Shown here: positions 1 through 63,869 of the stretch, piece after piece | How positions within the stretch are numbered: the first letter of the stretch is position 1 | How the letters are laid out: each line of letters starts with the position of its first letter | Source: an uncultured delta proteobacterium | Lineage (GTDB): Bacteria; Desulfobacterota; Binatia; UBA9968 | Direction of reading: 5' to 3' | Length of the DNA: 64,000 bases | Assembly: GCA_963755715.1 (NCBI GenBank) | Contig: CAVWLW010000076.1 | Location: 49,413-113,412, forward strand | Notes under the pieces: model-generated | The model's database searches: none | What the model was told of the DNA's origin: nothing | The model's input: the letters and a program-made list of their open reading frames with translations, nothing else | Made by a program: the position numbers and the translations under genes

Positions 1-156
1 GACGTGCGTCAAAATTTCGCGGAGCACCTCTCGCGATTTCAGTTTCGCCCAAAACAAGATTCGCTCGATGGTGAGAGCGAGCGAGATTAAAGAACAAATC
101 AGGAGCGGTATCATGACGATCCCACCCTTGACGATGACGGCAACGACCTGCGCCAT
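1..156 (-). CDS. MotA/TolQ/ExbB proton channel protein, N-terminal part (runs off window; 1-nt frameshift near 125)
   Basis: Manual translation MAQVVAVIVK/GIVMIPLLICSLISLALTIERILFW matches the GGxvMxPLxxxSxxxxxxxxER start of the ExbB/TolQ family. Confidence 0.8.
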   Translation of the reverse strand, partial: MAQVVAVIVKGGIVMIPLLICSLISLALTIERILFWAKLKSREVLREILTHV

Positions 157-158
157 GA

Positions 159-359
159 CTAGTGCACCGATCCTTTCTTGACTTCTGCGTCGAGTCGCTC
201 GACGCTGTCCGCCACGCTCTGCAACGCCAGCCCCAGGGCGCGCAAATCATCGAGGGAGATATGCAGCACACAATTGCCGTAATGAAAGTGGACGGTATCT
301 CGACTGCAGTTGCACAGAGAGACCGACCATTTGCCTTCGCGCGATTTGATTCCATCCAT
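159..359 (-). CDS. Small Cys/His-rich hypothetical protein (66 aa)
   Basis: ATG at 359 with GGAGG RBS; MDGIKSREGKWSVSLCNCSRDTVHFHYGNCVLHI...; stop abuts the exbB start. Confidence 0.7.
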   Translation of the reverse strand: MDGIKSREGKWSVSLCNCSRDTVHFHYGNCVLHISLDDLRALGLALQSVADSVERLDAEVKKGSVH

Positions 360-372
360 TTTGACCTCCAAT

Positions 373-417
373 AAAAAAGCCCGAAGTCCCGCCGATTGTT
401 CCGGCGCGCATCGGGCT
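373..417 (-). terminator. Intrinsic terminator/attenuator in the 5' leader
   Basis: Minus-strand AGCCCGA (417-411) pairs with TCGGGCT (384-378), inner GCCG/CGGC stem, followed by a T-run before the RBS. Confidence 0.65.
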
Positions 418-443
418 CTGGATTCATGACCGCTGGCCGCTGA
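413..443 (-). promoter_or_regulatory. Conserved leader motif copy 1 (putative Com-like protein RNA target)
   Basis: TCAGCGGCCAGCGGTCATGAATCCAGAGCCC; 28/31 identical to 3912-3942. Confidence 0.75.
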
Positions 444-448
444 CTTAT

Positions 449-479
449 TTCGTATATTAAAATGAAAATTAGTTGTCAA
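449..479 (-). promoter_or_regulatory. Sigma-70 promoter TTGACA-N17-TATACG overlapped by a DtxR-type box
   Basis: -35 at 479-474, -10 at 456-451; same geometry as 8778-8806. Confidence 0.65.
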
Positions 480-494
480 CACTAATAAAAAAGA

Positions 495-508
495 TTAGTC
501 TATACGAA
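495..508. promoter_or_regulatory. Candidate DtxR/MntR operator TTAGTCTATACGAA
   Basis: 14-bp pseudo-palindrome resembling IdeR/DtxR-type TTAGGTTAGGCTAA and the 8776-8789 site. Confidence 0.55.
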
Positions 509-536
509 AGACTGGGCAAAAGGGCTCTAATCAGAG

Positions 537-716
537 TCAGCTAGTCGGTTTCGACACGGTTGGTCGGTCGGTTGCGGCCAACAACGGAATGACCCACCGT
601 CTTTTACAGCGACGACACTTGAGCTCCACTCCATCTGGCACTAAACGGGCCAGGAGATTGCCGCATTGACAGCGTAACGGCTCAGCGGGCGATTTTTTGG
701 CGGCTTCTTTTTCCAT
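537..716 (-). CDS. Com-like zinc-ribbon protein 1 (59 aa)
   Basis: LRCQCGNLLARLVPDGVELKCRRCKR: Cys pair + LLA...EIKCxRC pattern of the Mu Com family; start codon uncertain. Confidence 0.75.
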   Translation of the reverse strand: MEKEAAKKSPAEPLRCQCGNLLARLVPDGVELKCRRCKRRWVIPLLAATDRPTVSKPTS

Positions 717-777
717 CGAAAAACCAAGTAAATTTTCACGTTTGCTTCGACCGTGGCAGCAAGCAGACGCGAGCGAA

Positions 778-1338
778 TCAGGCGCGATTACGGCGGAACT
801 CTTTGTCTCGATGCCTTGCAGCCCTGCTGCGGGCGCTGTTCGAGGGCTTCTCAAGCTCGAGCAGCTTGGCGGTCCAGCCCCGCCCCGCCAGAATATGGGC
901 GCAGAGAAGCGGCAAAGCGATCAGACCGATCACCCAATGGATCGTGCTGCTAAATTCGCGCACGGCGTCATCGCTCACGTAGTAGAGCAGCCAGCCGGAT
1001 AGCACCAGCACGCCGTTCAGCGCGATCATCGTGAAGCCTGACAGACGGTTTGCCTTCAGAGCGGTGCCGCGCCGGATATGCGCGATGAGCGTGCCCAACA
1101 GCGCGAGGTAGACAAGCATGGTTGCGCCGTGAACTTTCATGCTGATCGTTTGCAGCAAAGTTCGCGCTACGCCAAGCTCCGGATCCTTGAACCACTCGAT
1201 AAGCAGCCACAAGCTTCCACTGCCCCACAAAACGCCGAATACAATATAGAAGAGCCGGCGGTGCCAAGGTTCGAGCCGCACCTTCTCCCGCAGCAAGGCG
1301 ACGATCTTGGCGGTGCGATCAGTGGCTTTATCGCTCAT
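778..1338 (-). CDS. 4-TM membrane protein with four His, cytochrome b-like partner of ApbE module
   Basis: Four hydrophobic helices with KVHG, IAHI, TIHW, CAHI; last gene of the apbE module. Confidence 0.6.
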   Translation of the reverse strand: MSDKATDRTAKIVALLREKVRLEPWHRRLFYIVFGVLWGSGSLWLLIEWFKDPELGVARTLLQTISMKVHGATMLVYLALLGTLIAHIRRGTALKANRLSGFTMIALNGVLVLSGWLLYYVSDDAVREFSSTIHWVIGLIALPLLCAHILAGRGWTAKLLELEKPSNSARSRAARHRDKEFRRNRA

Positions 1339-1354
1339 TGGATCTCGATCCCAC

Positions 1355-2284
1355 TCAGATTATCTCCTGCATCTGAGCGGGCCTAAACCGCGGTGGATTC
1401 CCGAGGCTTCGCCGTCGCGCCGATTGCGCAATGCAACGAACACCGCGCCCGTCGATGATAATCGCTTGTGCGCCGAATTGCGGCAAAATTTTTGCCGCGC
1501 GCCGCGGCGCCAGACGAACGACCTTGGTGAGCGCATCGGCAATCAGGCAACGCGGTGCGACGACGGTGACGCTCTGTTGCCAACGCATTGTGGTGTTTCG
1601 TCGCGGATCGACCAGTGGATCGGTGCTATCGCCATCTTCGCGGCGCTCGGTAAAGCAGCCGCTGGAGCTTGCGACCGCCGCGTCTGTGAGAGTGCCAAGA
1701 GAAAATAATCGCGACGCATCTTCGGGGTGACGAATATGGATTGGCTGAGGGGCGCCGAAGGCGTAGAGATCGCCACCGGCGTTCACAATGCCGCTGTCGA
1801 CGCCGTTGCATTTGAGCGTTGCAGCCGCTCGATCGACCGCATAGCCTTTGGCAATCCCGCCAAGATCAATCCAGGCGCGGCGTCGTAACAGCACGCGATT
1901 GTCGGAAAGCAAACTCAGGTCGCGGAAATTGGCTTCTTCAGACGGCCATTCAGCATCTTCCGGCTTGGGCAAAAACCCCGCAGCGACGAGCTTGCCTCCG
2001 ACCGTGATGTCGAACGCTCCGTCGGAGAGCGCGCTGATTTTTTGCGCCCAGGAAAGGACTTCATAGGTTCTCGGGTCAACTTGCTGCGCAGTCAGAAGCG
2101 GCGCGCGATTGAGGCGCGCTATATCGCTGTCGGTTTCGTGAAAACTCATCAGCCGATGGATGATTTCAATTTCACGAAAAGCCGCCTCGATGGCCGGCGC
2201 GGCGTTCTCGCCTGCGGCACCGACTTCGACGAGCGTACCCAGCAAGGGCCGGGCGCGGCGTATTTCATTTGAAAGCGACTTCAT
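1355..2284 (-). CDS. apbE: FAD:protein FMN transferase
   Basis: GAFDITVG, IDLGGIAKGYAVD, VNAGGDL, ADALTK motifs. Confidence 0.92.
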   Translation of the reverse strand: MKSLSNEIRRARPLLGTLVEVGAAGENAAPAIEAAFREIEIIHRLMSFHETDSDIARLNRAPLLTAQQVDPRTYEVLSWAQKISALSDGAFDITVGGKLVAAGFLPKPEDAEWPSEEANFRDLSLLSDNRVLLRRRAWIDLGGIAKGYAVDRAAATLKCNGVDSGIVNAGGDLYAFGAPQPIHIRHPEDASRLFSLGTLTDAAVASSSGCFTERREDGDSTDPLVDPRRNTTMRWQQSVTVVAPRCLIADALTKVVRLAPRRAAKILPQFGAQAIIIDGRGVRCIAQSARRRSLGNPPRFRPAQMQEII

Positions 2285-2796
2285 AGGTTGCCAAAACCCG
2301 TTTCACGCCGTCGGCGATGTGGCGGCACGAGAGCGTCGCGCCGCTGATGTTCTTGATGTCTTTATTGAGTTTGAGCGGCGCCGCCGCGTTCTTGCCGACA
2401 AACTGCGCGCGCCAGTCGGCGTTGCGCACTTCGTAGCCGTAGCTTTCCCGATAGGTCAGGATCTCGATTTGCTTAACCGTGCCGTCAGGCGTTGAGGCCG
2501 ACGGCGTAGGTGATGAATTCGTGTTTGCCCACCACCTCGTCGACTACGAAGAAGCCGCCGTTGGCCACTTTCCACAATTGTATTTCTTTGTGCCTGACGT
2601 TGGCGTCGCTGCGCCGCGCAATTTCACGCGCCTGCTCGTTAGTGAGCGTGATATTAGCCGGCGCGAGTTTTTCCCCAGGGAAAATCGCTTGTTGTGCTTG
2701 CTCCACGGTCAGATAAGTGGCGCCATACGCGGCTGGGGCCAGTATGGCGATGGGGATCTGTGCCGCCGGTAGCCATATCCATTTCGAGGTACGCAT
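2265..2796 (-). CDS. Exported FMN-binding protein (frameshift near 2490)
   Basis: N-terminal ORF 2485-2796 continues in another frame ...ILTYRESYG...NISGATLSCRHIADGVKRVL; SGAT flavinylation motif. Confidence 0.85.
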
Positions 2797-2888
2797 AGCT
2801 ATCCCTTACTAAGTGAAGCCGAAAGCGTCATTGCGGCGCGGATAAAAATCCGTAAGCATTGGCGTCTGCCCCGGAAGAATGCCGCTCT

Positions 2889-3766
2889 CTAAAACACCCA
2901 TGCAACCTTGAGACGAAATTCGTATCGTTCGTGCTCTTCCAATTCCAGGTTGCGGGTTCGTCCCGGTGTAGGCGGCGTGCCAGCCACCTGGTTCAAGAAG
3001 GTGAAAGTGAACCACCATTTTTCTGCGGCGTAGTGGATATTCGGCCCGAGAAAAAAAGCGCCCTCCTGGGGACCTTTAAATTCAGGATATGCCGCATGAT
3101 AGCGGCCCTCGAGACCGACAAACCACTTTGGTGCGAAGCGATAGGAAATGCCCAAGGTATGCTCTACCTCCAGCTCTCTTTCACGCTCTCCGCTGGATTT
3201 GAACTTCGCCCACTCGGGCTCCAATGTCAGATTGTAGCCGAGGGCCAGTTGATCGTCGAAGAAGTTTTTTTGCAAAATAATTTTGCTCTCCAAGCCGAAC
3301 TGATCCATGCGCTCGCCGGAGACCCTGTCAATTCGCGAATAGGACGGTTCCAAATACAGAGATAGTCCGAAAAGATCTTTGTAGACGCTCAACAGGTTGT
3401 ACTTGAAGGCGAAATTCACGCCATTAAACTCGAGCCCACGAGAAATGTCGCGGTCCGGATCGTCTTCGAGGGCGCCGCCGGAGATCTGGTGGGACCGGCC
3501 TTTCAGATAAAAAGACGCCTGAAAACGGTCCGTGAAACCGTGTTCCAACTCGAGCATCTCATCCCAACCTCGGTATGTGCCTTTACCTTTGCTAGCACGA
3601 AGGGTGAGCCAATTATAAAGTTCGGTGCCGCCCTTTGGCAGGGTATCGGTACCATAAAGATAACCCCAGAGATTTTCATCGGCGTGAGCCGGCGGCAGAA
3701 AAAACAGCGCGGCGATCCACAGCACCGCCGCCAGCGCTAGGGGAAATCAAATGATCGAAAAAACAT
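2889..3766 (-). CDS. Outer-membrane beta-barrel protein, DUF6662-like (indel in signal peptide)
   Basis: AHA-DENLWGYLYGTDTLPKG; alternating beta-strands; C-terminal aromatic (WVF); ATG 3766 with AAGGAG RBS. Confidence 0.75.
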
Positions 3767-3875
3767 GACTGCTCCTTTCAAAGATTAAAGTTGAGGCTTG
3801 CTCGCTTCGTTGGATTGCACATCGGTGACCAGCACTACCTTGCTTCGTGCACCCATCTGTACAAAAGAAATTCAT
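3747..3875 (-). CDS. Putative 42-aa leader ORF MNFFCTDGCTKQGSAGHRC...
   Basis: AAGGAG RBS and ATG at 3875; overlaps the start of the downstream gene. Confidence 0.35.
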   Translation of the reverse strand: MNFFCTDGCTKQGSAGHRCAIQRSEQASTLIFERSSHVFSII

Positions 3876-3911
3876 AGCCCGACTCCTTCCTTAGTTATTT
3901 TGCGAAGCACT

Positions 3912-3942
3912 GGGCTCTGGATTCTCGACCTCTGGCCGCTGA
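3912..3942 (-). promoter_or_regulatory. Conserved leader motif copy 2
   Basis: TCAGCGGCCAGAGGTCGAGAATCCAGAGCCC; its AGCCC can pair with GGGCT adjacent to ATG 3875. Confidence 0.75.
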
Positions 3943-3989
3943 AGGATCCTGTTGTACGAAGCTTTTTACACGACTTACACTGTCTATCC

Positions 3990-4125
3990 TCACGGTTCCT
4001 TTGGTATCGACGCGGAAGAATCGACGCGACGTTTGCAGCGCCGGCACTTGATTTCTACGCCTTGCGCTGACTAACCGCGCCAAAAGACTGCCGCAACAAC
4101 AGCGGAGGGCGTCCTCATCGCGCAT
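3990..4125 (-). CDS. Com-like zinc-ribbon protein 2 (frameshift near 4065)
   Basis: MRDEDALRCCCGSLLARLVS then shifted frame QGVEIKCRRCKRRV...; paralog of 537-716. Confidence 0.7.
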
Positions 4126-4175
4126 AGCTAGAACGGCATCCTGCCGCGATGTTTGATCCGGGCTTAAACTGCGAA

Positions 4176-6216
4176 CTAAGACTCCACAGGTCCTTTCTTT
4201 CCTGCGCCGACCCACAGGAAAGTCGCAAAAAACGCGCATAGCATAAGCGCTTGAGCCGCTAAACTTTCCAAGGTCGGATAAATTCCCAGCAGCGGAATCT
4301 GCGGCGGGAAACCAAGGGGGTTGTCGAAACCCAGCCCGCGGCCTGTAACTCTTTAATACCGTTACCGGCGAAAATGAACGCAATGATATAAAGGAAGGTT
4401 CCGGTGACGCCGAAGAAATATTTCAACGGAACTTTGAGGCCGAGCTTCAAAATGGCAAAGGTCAGCACGACAAGAACCGCCAGTCCGGCGATGAATCCCC
4501 AAAGAATCAGATGATGGTCGTTTTCGTTCTGCAGCCATAGCGCTTGGTAAAACAACACGACTTCAAAAGCCTCACGATAGACGGCAAAAAATGAAATTCC
4601 CACCAGTCCGAGAATCTTCTTGCCGTCGACCACGTTCTGTACCTTGTCGTGAATGAAGCTCTGCCACTTCTTGGCCTCGGACTTCGTATGCAGCCAATAG
4701 CCGACGTAGAACAAAGCTACGGCGGCAAAAACCGAGATAAAGCCCTCCATGCTTTCGCGATGTTGTCCGCTGAAAGTCAAAAACGTTTGAGTGGCGACCC
4801 AGGTGAGGCCGCCGGCGACGAGGGCGAGGACCCAGCCGATGATGGATGTAGCGAACGGCATGCGGTGGCGCCCATGACTTTGAGCATCGCCAGGATCGCG
4901 GCTAGAACCAAAGTCGCTTCCAGTCCTTCGCGCACAATGATCAGCGCGGAATTGAGGAAAAAATAGATGCCCGAGTAGTCGTCGTTGCGCGCGATGATTT
5001 CGCTGGCCCGATCGAGACCCGCTTCGATTTCACTGCGCCGTTTGTCGATCTCTTCCGGCCCAACTCCCTGTTTGATGGCGTTACGGTACGCGGTGAATAA
5101 GCCCTCGAGGCTGCGGCCGAAGGAGGCGTCTTTGGCGAATAAGGCGGGCTCGGCCAGCTCGTAGCCGTCGATGTAGGCATCGACGGCCTTTTGATAGGCT
5201 TTTTCTTTTTCTCCGGCGGCATAGAGCGCTGCGCTTTCGCGCACCAAGTTCCGAGTCAGCACCAGCGGGTCCGCCGGCTTTTGTTCCAACAGACCGCGGC
5301 GCAGATAAGCGAGGACATCGTTGACCTGATCTTCCTGATCGAAATAACTCTTAAGTTGTTCCGATAGCTGTTCATCGGAGTCGGTTGCGAGATTCGCCAC
5401 GGCGGTCAGCTCCGCCGGCAATTTTTTCTGCTGTATCAGCGCCGCGCCGCGATCGGCTTGTTCGCGCGAGAAACGCAAGGACATGACATAGAACGCGACC
5501 TGCCAGCGCTGCTCCTCGCTGAGCGCCGCAAACGAAGCCATCGCCGTTCCCTCCACGCCGAAGCTCGCCGTGTTGAAAGCCTTAAACGGCGACAATCCCG
5601 CCATTCGCTCAGGATCGGTGAAATTCGCCGGCGCGGGCGTCTTGGGATTCATCGAACTTCGCCCCGGTCCATCGCCCTTGCCGCTCTCGCCGTGGCATTG
5701 GGCGCAATTCTCCACGTAGAGTTTTTGGCCTGAGTCCAAAGACGGCAACTGTTTAGGATACGGAACGATTTTATATGCGGTGATCAGTTTTTCTTTGGCG
5801 TTCTGGGCGAGCTCGGCGACGATCTGGGGCTCGGCTTTTTTGTCGATCTGTGCGGCCAGTGATTTAATAGTCGATTCGATTCCGGCTCTGTCCGCCTTGT
5901 CGGCTTGTTTGAGCTGATTGAAAAGTTCTTGGCTGCGCTTGGAGAACTCCTGCATCTCGGCGTATTCGTCGGCGCTCAGGATCTTGCCGTCCTTGACGGC
6001 GTTTTTGTAGTCGCTGCCGAGATAGTCGAGTAGCGAGACCAGCCGCTTGGCGTCATCCGGTTGGGCGAAAGCCAGAGGCGCGGTGCTCAAGAGCGCAGCG
6101 ATTGCCAGGAAACAAAAGAAGAGACGGCGGATACCGGGAATTCGGTTAAGTCGGTTGTCTGAGAAGCTACGAAAGCAACGGGTCGAGGTGGTTTTATTAT
6201 GAGATGGAGGTTCCAT
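4176..6216 (-). CDS. Cytochrome c / FTR1-family iron permease fusion (frameshifts near 4860 and 4315)
   Basis: CAQCH heme motif; REGLE and REAFE motifs; C-terminal LLGIYPTLE; exact start uncertain. Confidence 0.9.
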
Positions 6217-63527: not shown

Positions 63528-63604
63528 CGGGGCGTAGCGCAGCCTGGTAGCGCACCTGCCTTGGGCGCAGGGGGTCGGAAGTTCGAATCTTCTCGCCCCG
63601 ACCA
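63528..63604 (+). tRNA. tRNA-Pro(TGG)
   Basis: Cloverleaf, anticodon TGG, encoded CCA. Confidence 0.93.
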
Positions 63605-63607
63605 TCG

Positions 63608-63688
63608 AGTAGTACTGAGTTATGAGCGCTGAGTGCTGAGGGTTTCAGAGCGGATGGCATTTTTCTCCTCTCGGCACTCAGCACTCGT
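63608..63688. repeat. Heptamer repeats (GTGCTGA-like) with inverted set in tRNA spacer
   Basis: gtactgagttatgagcgctgagtgctgag ... ctcggcactcagcactc. Confidence 0.55.
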
Positions 63689-63699
63689 TATCTTTTTTG

Positions 63700-63776
63700 G
63701 CGCCAGTAGCTCAGTTGGATAGAGCAACGGCCTTCTAAGCCGTAGGTCAGGGGTTCGAATCCCTTCTGGCGCGCCA
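63700..63776 (+). tRNA. tRNA-Arg(TCT)
   Basis: Cloverleaf, anticodon TCT, CCA. Confidence 0.95.
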
Positions 63777-63791
63777 GAATAGTTTGTTTAC

Positions 63792-63869
63792 GGTGAGTGT
63801 AGCTCAACTGGTTAGAGCACTGGGTTGTGGTCCCAGGGGTTGAGGGTTCAAGTCCCTTCACTCACCCCA
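63792..63869 (+). tRNA. tRNA-His(GTG)
   Basis: G-1, anticodon GTG, CCA. Confidence 0.95.

Follow-up and report, generated by a model that had tools for sequence, protein, structure and literature searches.

Do two small genes for Cys4 proteins, each followed by the same short non-coding sequence and set among genes of metal uptake, make up a regulatory system of the kind known from the Com protein of phage Mu? The question is raised by the window, i.e., the whole 64,000-nucleotide stretch of DNA from an uncultured delta proteobacterium of the Binatia that was analyzed here. The first-pass annotation of this DNA had described both genes and both motifs, and had proposed that the protein binds the leader RNA and controls the genes that follow. 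All features are located on the (-) strand unless otherwise indicated.

Results

The com-like gene copy 1 (537-716) is an intact open reading frame of 59 amino acids, the product of which has the Cys4 core C-x-C ... C-x-x-C and two variable ends that are probably disordered. The AF2 model consists of three strands with a pLDDT of 91-93 in the core and below 50 at both ends; a Foldseek search with the predicted structure gave no match at E up to 0.001. Copy 2 (approximately 3990-4125) has the same core out of frame. Reading of the sequence indicated at least two frame breaks, the whole-genome search returned the gene in two pieces, and copy 2 is either a pseudogene or the result of an assembly error. 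The region of this gene (3907-4188), frameshifts included, is nearly uncovered by independent contigs at 90% likeness. Around copy 1, positions 145-683 show no differences from a contig of an independent run (X1) and positions 100-796 show three differences from a contig of another study. We found 49 homologues of the copy 1 protein; an alignment of 36 family sequences has 16 invariant core residues, and the family occurs in at least 310 species-level genomes. The com-like gene is coding: core differences among 80 distinct sequences, picked by protein pattern and thus biasing the count, numbered 42,630 at third codon positions versus 14,580 at first and 6,851 at second positions.

The kinship with Com that had been suggested for these proteins held in profile comparisons and failed with the Pfam model. 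The 36-sequence profile aligned by hhalign with Mu Com at 92.1% (E 6.3e-7, 32 columns) and with a Mu-like Com at 94.4% (E 8.4e-8). The best of 38,880 PHROGs was phrog_13819, "gpCom control of modification" (E 4.4e-4), and 13 of the 49 homologues carry the JGI name "phage FluMu protein Com". The best phage matches of a tblastn search fell in a Mu-like region, with an E value no better than 2. Pfam Zn_ribbon_Com (PF10122) did not match the window protein at E up to 0.1 and hit one of the 36 family members at E 1.7, without reaching the gathering threshold, while the positive controls Mu Com and Mu-like Com scored 36.8 and 48.1 bits; an NCBIfam scan of the com-like protein returned nothing. The four Cys are invariant, and the first pair is C-x-C as opposed to the C-x2-C of the Com finger. 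By profile comparison, the com-like family is a remote, divergent relative of Mu Com.

The leader motifs are located at 413-443 (copy 1, 45.3 bits with covariance model R1) and 3912-3942 (copy 2, 45.2 bits), at distances of 93 nt and about 47 nt, respectively, from the stop codon of the com-like gene. As the first-pass annotation had it, 28 of their 31 bases are identical and the flanks do not align. No other copy exists in the organism's own genome (7,407,624 bases), and none of 100 dinucleotide shuffles of the window matched the motif with up to three mismatches. Copy 1 consists of a CC-N-G-M-G box, a 3-bp covarying hairpin and a CC-N-GAG-CCC box. In two separate sequence sets the inner helix is paired in 99.1% and 99.3%, with 29 and 14 cells of both-sided changes compared with 8.3 and 4.6 after shuffling (values reached in 0 of 500 shuffles each), and sliding the partner strand makes the pairing collapse. 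The loop of the hairpin is variable in length, with 3 nt at the lower end and 8 nt or more at the upper. Covariation is a property of this inner stem; the outer GGC/GCC helix, which as a putative antiterminator would compete with the terminator, is invariant in both sets except for one A-U and one G-U pair. The motif is an RNA element that is conserved, has its short covarying hairpin between two CC-N-GAG boxes, and has a fold energy of about −5 kcal/mol when taken alone. None of the 4227 covariance models of Rfam 15 matched either copy at E up to 10 (positions 1-6000), and at gathering score the whole window yielded three tRNAs only. Literature searches and Rfam gave no account of such a system.

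The distribution of the element follows that of the protein. Strong protein matches were found in the genome of origin and in 15 of 24 genomes of the same genus; none came from the 16 genomes that belong to other families. The motif occurs in exactly those 16 of 41 genomes that have the protein and in none of the remaining 25. In a sample of 101 Myxococcales genomes the protein is present in 28 and the motif in 24, all 24 of them among the 28, and none of the 73 genomes lacking the protein has the motif. The agreement is not perfect: four of the 28 protein-bearing Myxococcales genomes lack the motif (E up to 0.01, strict filters), as do three of five in the phylum sample, in which one weak match (E 0.003) came from a genome without the protein. 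Overall, covariance model matches of the leader are almost confined to genomes encoding the com-like protein. The two parts are also adjacent. The motif lies 19-161 nt (median 49) after the stop codon, on the same strand, in 76 of 94 com-like open reading frames; 13 of the 94, including all five Sorangium loci, have no motif in the locus. In 100 loci, all matches with an E value of at most 0.002 are on the gene strand (94/94), and metagenome loci gave the same picture (motif in 76 of 80, 83/83 matches on the gene strand). Two complete genomes of 9.5 and 10.1 Mb have one motif each, beside the com-like gene. Genomes carry up to five target sites, and four genomes have the motif on one contig and the gene on another.

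The 3′-end of the motif is the 5′ arm of a hairpin in both copies, as had been noted, and the kind of hairpin differs. In leader 1, GAGCCCGA at 418-411, which includes the 3′ GAGCCC of the motif, pairs with UCGGGCUU to form an intrinsic terminator (373-418; stem 418-377, T run 373-378, −26.7 kcal/mol). A Shine-Dalgarno (SD) sequence at 365-369 and then the gene come after the T run, so that leader 1 has the GC-rich stem and T run before the first gene that characterize an intrinsic-terminator attenuator. The hairpin of leader 2 (3876-3916) is weaker (−14.0 kcal/mol). In it, GCCC of the motif pairs with GGGC located directly 5′ of the AUG at 3875-3873; the loop has a purine-rich, SD-like run, there is no clear T run, and the folding z-score of the whole leader is only −0.92. 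A stem plus at least five T was found in 48 of 85 folded motif instances. The folded Myxococcaceae instances have no terminator. In these, a helix is predicted that hides the start codon of a TonB-dependent receptor gene and has the 3′ bases of the motif as one of its strands: the consensus of 16 leaders pairs GCCC plus four bases with the AUG region. Both-sided changes occur at two pairs, and in 5 of the 16 rows the same two pairs are broken or contain gaps. A translational block of the Mu type is seen in the Myxococcaceae helix and not in copy 1, where the block is a transcription terminator. The terminators and start-codon helices are stable unaided (−20 to −40 kcal/mol).

Between com-like copy 1 and leader 1 there is a promoter-like site (451-479) consisting of TTGACA (474-479), a 17-nt spacer and TATACG (451-456). 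It is absent from the consensus-scan list because the last base of the −10 hexamer is G. Judging from its sequence, transcripts from this site would begin no more than about 10 nt from the motif. In 13 related loci, TTGACA and an A/T-rich −10 region occur in the same register. An AT-rich inverted repeat (6 + 7 + 6; 481-499, no strand assigned) abuts the −35 hexamer and is a candidate operator, and similar repeats are found upstream of the −35 hexamer in related loci. The first gene after leader 1 (159-359) encodes a conserved protein of 66 amino acids without a Pfam family; a member of this family comes after the motif in 18 of the 74 instances scanned. Next comes the start of exbB (1-156), and the operon continues outside the window with TonB, a TonB-dependent receptor, a PKHD-type hydroxylase, DUF3016, PepSY_TM, flavodoxin and DUF4198. 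The operon behind leader 2 (778-3766) encodes a DUF6662 outer-membrane barrel (2889-3766, frame broken near 3740), an open reading frame at about 2303-2796 (frame broken near 2487), ApbE (1355-2284) and a membrane protein (778-1338), and com-like copy 1 is its last gene. Independent contigs show 1-nt indels at 2487/2490 and 3748. The open reading frame at about 2303-2796 has no family match, and the FMN-binding label given to it found no support. Com-like copy 2 comes after a cytochrome c / FTR1 iron permease gene (4259-6216, frame broken at 4777-4861), an order that is conserved in related loci. Contigs from RNA libraries touch the cluster in part only and carry no weight as expression evidence.

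The metal-uptake role predicted for the regulated genes was borne out, the metal being iron: the genes downstream of the motif are TonB/ExbB systems, TonB-dependent receptors, other outer-membrane proteins and ferritin-like genes. The same leader is found in front of uptake genes and of a ferritin-like gene, a poor fit to a simple starvation-ON logic. Of 17 Myxococcota loci checked, 16 have Fur-box-like sites (12-16 of 19 positions) upstream of the com-like gene. At some loci (L027 and L038), the motif and a terminator also precede the com-like gene itself. The neighbors in the loci read are iron-uptake genes, and no phage genes were seen there.

Discussion

These observations suggest that many soil bacteria control iron acquisition by a protein-RNA switch of which we found no description. 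We infer, with moderate confidence, that the leader is bound by an activator of the Com type and that this binding relieves either termination or the masking of translation. The module would have two parts, a Cys4 zinc-ribbon protein and an RNA element of about 31 nt that starts iron-acquisition transcripts. In the unbound RNA, GAGCCC would form the 5′ arm of the terminator (in the window and most lineages) or, in Myxococcaceae, the same bases would enter the long-range helix that buries the start codon, and in both cases the default state would be OFF. The protein may bind the short hairpin and the two flanking CC-N-GAG boxes, holding the 3′ box so that the terminator or masking helix could not form, and the TonB/ExbB, receptor, outer-membrane and ferritin-like genes would then be transcribed or translated. 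An element of about −5 kcal/mol faces a terminator of −26.7 kcal/mol, and therefore the ON state needs a factor. Since the com-like gene lies behind Fur-box-like promoters or ends the preceding iron operon, we propose that the protein could provide a protein-dependent second gate, or an operon-to-operon relay, on top of Fur. A bolder version is speculative and rather improbable: a domesticated Com-family regulator that acts after initiation and has gone unnoticed although spread over Myxococcota, Binatia and several other phyla, in which the Cys4 site is a sensor and its occupancy by Fe or Zn decides leader binding. If it were true, TonB systems, receptors and ferritin-like genes would be gated by a metal-dependent antiterminator or translational switch above Fur.

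Other explanations accommodate part of the data. The covarying stem bases, which change yet stay complementary, and the variable loop length speak against the motif being a DNA operator for a com-like DNA-binding transcription factor, a very unlikely reading to which the position of type-A motifs, at about +1 to +30 of the promoter-like site as is usual for repressors, lends some appeal. In some annotation pipelines, relatives of Com carry the label of DNA-binding regulator. All copies, however, are found on the coding strand, no promoter lies near those of type B and of Myxococcus, and the motif overlaps RNA structures. The same type-A arrangement, with a strong promoter-like site directly upstream and a terminator directly downstream, could produce a short stable RNA of about 75 nt, or an RNA derived from the 3′-end of the com-like mRNA, either of which would act in trans as an sRNA under iron stress and use the conserved single-stranded boxes as seed; terminated leaders would accumulate. 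Such an RNA as the purpose of the element has a very low probability, because the next SD sequence is 5-20 nt after the T run, which leaves no room for another promoter and means that read-through must feed the gene, the Myxococcaceae copies have no terminator, and every motif lies in cis to an iron gene. Such an sRNA is compatible with a Com-type activator.

Alternatively, the element could be a riboswitch-like sensor or the site of another factor, such as a metal, a small molecule or a general RNA-binding protein, with the com-like gene merely co-regulated in the iron regulon. Conserved internal-loop bases beside interchangeable platforms are also found in riboswitches, and this idea fits the com-like genomes without a motif and for the four in which motif and gene are on different contigs. 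We nevertheless consider it unlikely. An aptamer of 31 nt with 3 + 3 pairs would be very small, a riboswitch that stands on its own does not require the link seen in the 0 of 73 and 0 of 25 protein-less genomes that have the motif, and the same polarity before uptake and ferritin-like genes argues against iron as the ligand. Furthermore, the boxes resemble the published Com recognition motif (PMC6483171). The positive direction is our deduction, and the protein might instead bind and act negatively or neutrally by stabilizing the OFF state, protecting or processing the transcript end, or autoregulating, as the motif and terminator before the com-like gene in L027 and L038 could suggest. We judge this decidedly improbable: the OFF helices are stable enough for a repressor to add little, and the one studied relative is an activator (PMC6483171).

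The Com-type activator reading can be placed among known systems. With riboswitch attenuators the leaders share a conserved sensor segment joined to a lineage-specific platform, either a terminator or a translation-masking helix; they differ in that the sensor is only about 31 nt, has no Rfam match and is almost confined to protein-encoding genomes. In BglG/SacY-RAT systems, the protein binds an RNA site of about 30 nt that shares bases with the 5′ arm of a terminator, and so stabilizes a weak alternative hairpin that leads to read-through. These proteins have CAT/PRD domains, are regulated by phosphorylation and control sugar operons. The likeness is a conserved site of about 30 nt overlapping the 5′ arm of an intrinsic terminator, whereas the com-like protein has no homology to them and the alternative outer helix of the leader is invariant, without covariation. 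HemP/HmuP/ChuP proteins are similar in logic: in the available text of PMC9131926, the small-protein gene is first in a Fur-regulated operon, a conserved RNA element (HPRE) lies between it and a TonB-dependent receptor gene, and positive post-transcriptional control is proposed, with further targets elsewhere in the genome. In contrast, that family is unrelated, lacks cysteines and binds haem, its RNA element is different, and the HPRE features described in that text do not include a terminator or a start-codon helix (PMC9131926). For none of the 36 com-like family members was hemP (PF10636) among the Pfam matches at E up to 10.

The closest comparison is with Com/mom of phage Mu (PF10122, phrog_13819). 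The com-like genes differ in being chromosomal and without phage neighbors, in having iron-acquisition operons rather than a DNA-modification gene as presumed targets, with up to five sites per genome, in a usual output through an intrinsic terminator, i.e., transcription, in the first knuckle (C-x-C) and in a Pfam score below threshold. In addition, CC-N1-GAG flanks the stem here, while in the Mu target CC-N2-3-GAG is within a loop. On the other hand, both systems have a protein of about 60 amino acids that carries an N-terminal Cys4 finger, in the com-like family a putative one, ahead of a variable tail; the two are similar in sequence at the profile level and encoded directly upstream of the actual or presumed target in the same direction. 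According to PMC6483171, Com recognizes CC(N)2-3GAG with an exposed GA, its SELEX motif is bipartite, on both sides of a variable stem of 3-4 nucleotides, and it binds beside, and melts, the structure holding the start codon. The leader element, the presumed target, likewise is a short hairpin with CC..GAG boxes beside such a block, and its layout is that of the SELEX-type bipartite boxes around a stem (PMC6483171).

Organization of the Iron-Acquisition Cluster

The two com-like genes, which code for small Cys4 zinc-ribbon proteins, are located in an iron-acquisition cluster, all features of which are on the minus strand of the window. In transcription order, a cytochrome c/FTR1 iron-permease gene (4259-6216) is followed by an out-of-frame com-like copy 2 (about 3990-4125), leader motif 2 (3912-3942), a hairpin that ends at an AUG (3876-3916) and a group of genes (778-3766) for a DUF6662 outer-membrane barrel, a product that matched no family, ApbE and a membrane protein. 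Com-like copy 1 (537-716) comes next, and behind it are a promoter-like site (TTGACA at 474-479, a 17-nt spacer and TATACG at 451-456), leader motif 1 (413-443) and its intrinsic terminator (373-418), an SD with a 66-aa gene (159-359), and exbB, which starts at 156. Beyond the window the exbB operon includes TonB, a TonB-dependent receptor, a PKHD-type hydroxylase, DUF3016, PepSY_TM, flavodoxin and DUF4198. A com-like gene closes each sub-operon and a leader opens the next one.

An independent assembly showed 0 differences from the window at 145-683. Other assemblies have 1-nt indels at 2487/2490 and 3748, which are frameshift sites in the window, and therefore at least some of its broken frames stem from errors of assembly or from differences between strains; at least the breaks at these two places look like one or the other rather than decay. 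Within the cluster, frame breaks occur in the ORF at about 2303-2796 (2487-2490), the start of the DUF6662 gene (about 3740-3750), the cytochrome c/FTR1 gene (4777-4861) and the TonB-dependent receptor gene beyond the window (4750-4817 in L133). RNA-library contigs reach parts of 703-3580 and neither leader. In the four sequencing runs compared, the region of the copy-2 gene was almost uncovered. At its other end, the window has a cluster of three tRNA genes (63528-63866, plus strand).

The first-pass annotation described the two leader motifs as near-identical elements within unrelated flanks, and this description was accurate: they are identical at 28 of 31 positions and their flanks do not align. 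Shuffled sequences contained no match to the motif (0/100), and the 7.4-Mb source genome has two motif copies and two com-like genes, only those of the window. A scan with consensus rules for promoters and terminators missed the promoter-like site before leader 1 and the terminator after it because the rules call for T as the final base of the -10 element and for a loop of 3-8. The -35 element of the promoter-like site before leader 1 is adjoined by an AT-rich inverted repeat (6-7-6) at 481-499. AT-rich inverted repeats also occur at the -35 of promoters in Binatia-type loci with a promoter-like site directly before the motif and a terminator directly after it. As a candidate operator, the repeat at 481-499 would perhaps be bound by a repressor of the Fur family.

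The Com-like Protein

Sixteen core residues, including R-C-x-C-G and K-C-R-R-C-K-R, are invariant in 36 sequences. Among 80 distinct gene cores, a set chosen by its protein pattern, the differences are mainly at third codon positions. The AF2 model has a three-stranded core (pLDDT 91-93) with disordered ends. The kinship to the Com family proposed at first held in part: the Pfam Com model did not recognize the protein, but the family profile aligned to Mu Com (NC_000929) with 92.1% probability and to a Mu-like Com with 94.4%, with a one-residue gap in the first knuckle. The best PHROG match of the family is gpCom. Pfam and NCBIfam searches with the window protein returned only generic zinc-ribbon matches below threshold, a sequence-profile search of the PDB gave zinc-finger matches at chance level (best E 0.23), and Foldseek found no PDB structure at E ≤0.001 for the AF2 model. 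By these comparisons the com-like protein is a remote relative of Com that falls outside the family by Pfam's threshold.

A large protein collection held 49 relatives, 13 of them named 'phage FluMu protein Com' by JGI. Relatives were also encoded in at least 310 stretches of species-representative genomes; titles among the best 80 of these 310 include Candidatus Binatia, Myxococcus, Corallococcus, Pyxidicoccus, Sorangium, Anaeromyxobacter, Haliangium, Acidiferrales, Eisenbacteria and Thermodesulfobacteriota, among others. At least 513 metagenome stretches encode the protein.

Association of the RNA Element with the Com-like Gene

R1, a covariance model of the leader motif, gave 94 matches at E ≤0.002 in 100 loci. 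Of 80 metagenome loci (the best 80 of at least 513), 76 contained the motif, with 83 matches in all. In both sets every match is on the strand of the gene. The motif was located 19-161 nt past the stop codon (median 49) in 76 of 94 com-like ORFs; in the others it overlapped the end of the called ORF (2), lay about 1 kb away (3) or was not found (13). When the filters of the search were turned off, 15 loci without a hit yielded one plausible long-loop variant (L039, E 0.28), and the Sorangium loci yielded no motif. The Sorangium homologues (L051, L085, L087, L090 and L093) have an extra N-terminal C-x-x-C-G segment; within 3 kb of these genes there is no detectable motif, and a Fur-box-like site is still found upstream. 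These homologues may use a diverged target.

The co-occurrence that the first-pass annotation proposed to look for in related genomes was found, as the motif is present in exactly the 16 genomes with a strong protein match. These are the source genome and 15 of 24 genomes of the same genus; none of 16 genomes from other families had such a match. One weak protein match among the relatives (E 9e-4, with an in-frame stop) was left uncounted. The unpublished genome G005 is one of the 16 and contributes one row to each of alignments A3 and A4 of motif instances; no result rests on it alone. Of 101 genomes sampled from the order to which a Myxococcus genome belongs, 24 had the motif, and all of these were among the 28 that have the protein; the motif was found in 0 of the 73 without it. 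A 151-genome phylum sample included six genomes with the protein and four with the motif (both in three, protein only in three, a weak motif only in one). Two complete Myxococcaceae genomes have one motif copy each and complete Binatia-labelled genomes have 2-5; in complete genomes the copies are within about 25 kb of the gene, except for a weak match (E 0.03) at a distance of about 160 kb. In Myxococcus xanthus a genome has a single com-like gene and a single motif. The same protein-motif pattern occurs in two distant lineages, although related genomes are not independent. That the association of the com-like protein with the RNA element is real is nearly certain.

Structure of the RNA Element

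The motif has the consensus G-M-G-G-C-C-N-G-M-G, a hairpin, and C-C-N-G-A-G-C-C-C. The stem of the hairpin consists of 3-4 bp that vary in sequence while pairing is kept (G-C, A-U, G-U, U-A, C-G and U-G), and the loop ranges from 3 to at least 8 nt. The rows of A3, the first covariance-model alignment, had been pre-selected for at least three stem pairs, so its 100% pairing is by construction, and the selection dropped two likely true rows (L036:2818-2848 and L098:3238-3268). The decisive pairing counts come from alignments A4 and A7, which include rows of that kind. In the model-made alignments without a pre-filter, the inner helix was paired at 99.1% (73 distinct rows) and 99.3% (48 distinct rows), values favored by the fitting of the alignments to the model. 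Inner-helix cells changed on both sides numbered 29 and 14, compared with 8.3 ± 2.2 and 4.6 ± 1.6 in shuffles (0/500 each), and sliding the partner by one or more columns lowered the pairing to 63% or less. Covariation had been anticipated in the stems; the inner helix displays it, but the outer GGC/GCC helix is invariant except for one A-U and one G-U. For this reason an outer helix of GGC with GCC that competes with the terminator is a possibility kept as a hypothesis. RNAfold applied to the 31-mers alone did not predict the proposed hairpin, and the energies were no better than those of shuffles (z +0.29 and -0.65). Rfam searches at E ≤10 over 1-6000, and at the gathering score over the window, gave no match at the motifs.

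Expression Platforms and Downstream Genes

In 48 of 85 folded instances, the GAGCCC with which the motif ends supplies the 5′ strand of a stable stem, and five or more T are found in the 9 nt behind that stem. The SD of the next gene lies a few nucleotides past the terminator stem or T run. The high-GC Myxococcaceae leaders lack a T run. In the consensus fold of 16 of them, GCCC and the next four bases form a helix with the start codon and a further eight bases on its 3′ side; two pairs of this helix are changed on both sides in four rows each and broken or gapped in five each. A single conserved sensor joined to either of two types of expression platform is what marks a cis-acting switch. Each platform is stable alone and the motif hairpin is not, so the default state would be OFF, with the terminator or the start-codon helix forming unaided. 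If the default is OFF, the absent factor should be an activator needed for the ON state, and we propose the com-like protein for this role. The mechanism as a whole, in which this protein would act on the leader, is put forward with moderate confidence. In L027 / L038 (about 1345-1375 and 2872-2902), a leader and terminator are found directly upstream of the com-like gene itself, by which the protein may control its own synthesis.

The 87 distinct motif instances provided 74 first downstream ORFs for scanning (five had no ORF call and eight short or wrong-frame-looking ones were dropped). The Pfam tally, which agrees with the metal-uptake targets proposed initially, was as listed here: Plug domain (19 of 74), TonB-dependent receptor barrel (18), DUF6662 (5), Cupredoxin_1 (5), ExbB (3) and Porin_O_P (3). 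The unnamed 64-71-aa family of window 159-359 (minus strand) is the first ORF in 18 of the 74. This family, called the commonest first gene behind the leader, directly precedes exbB and conserves a Trp and the stretches L-C-N-C-S and H-x-H-Y-G-N. It belongs to no Pfam or NCBIfam family, and the 66-aa protein matched only unnamed ESM Atlas clusters (best score 0.88), in which Binatota, Myxococcota and Pseudomonadota are the most frequent phyla. Its role may be that of another regulatory component or of a part of the TonB system.

Four same-genus genomes (L125, L126, L128 and L130; about 1505-1531 in each) have extra motif copies preceding a gene judged by eye from its sequence to be ferritin/Dps-like, so that one leader type serves both uptake and storage-type genes. 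These copies are 9-13 kb from the com-like gene and have an AT-rich Fur-box-like stretch upstream. Of 17 Myxococcota loci scored against the 19-bp E. coli Fur-box consensus, 16 have an AT-rich Fur-box-like site upstream of the com-like gene, with 12-16 matching positions; the score on the scored strand was at, or one below, the both-strand maximum of each locus.

Comparison with Known Systems

To our knowledge, Com has so far stood alone as an oddity of phages, a single protein that turns on a single phage gene. The literature searched described no chromosomal Com-type regulator of iron genes, and other papers or supplements could hold one; the leader RNA belongs to no Rfam family. If the proposal is correct, bacterial chromosomes have recruited a Com-type RNA-binding finger at large scale (at least 310 species-level genomes and at least 513 metagenome stretches), the leader is a new cis-regulatory RNA that works by termination or start-codon masking, and the pair supplies a missing post-transcriptional layer of iron regulation both in the tractable model organism Myxococcus xanthus and in Binatia, a soil lineage that is abundant and uncultured. 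At about 35 residues and about 31 nt, such a protein-RNA pair would be compact and could find use as a genetic switch. The terminator form of the module resembles RAT-type antitermination, and in its mode of working the module may be likened to Mu Com/mom. According to one study of the Com-RNA interaction, the sequence recognized by Com is CC(N)2-3GAG, in which the GA is exposed; SELEX yielded two such boxes flanking a variable stem 3-4 nucleotides long, and Com binds next to, and presumably melts, a structure containing the mom start codon (PMC6483171). The leader element resembles the target published there in its layout, except that its spacer is one base instead of two or three. The module is also arranged like HmuP/ChuP-HPRE of proteobacterial haem receptors, as described in PMC9131926.
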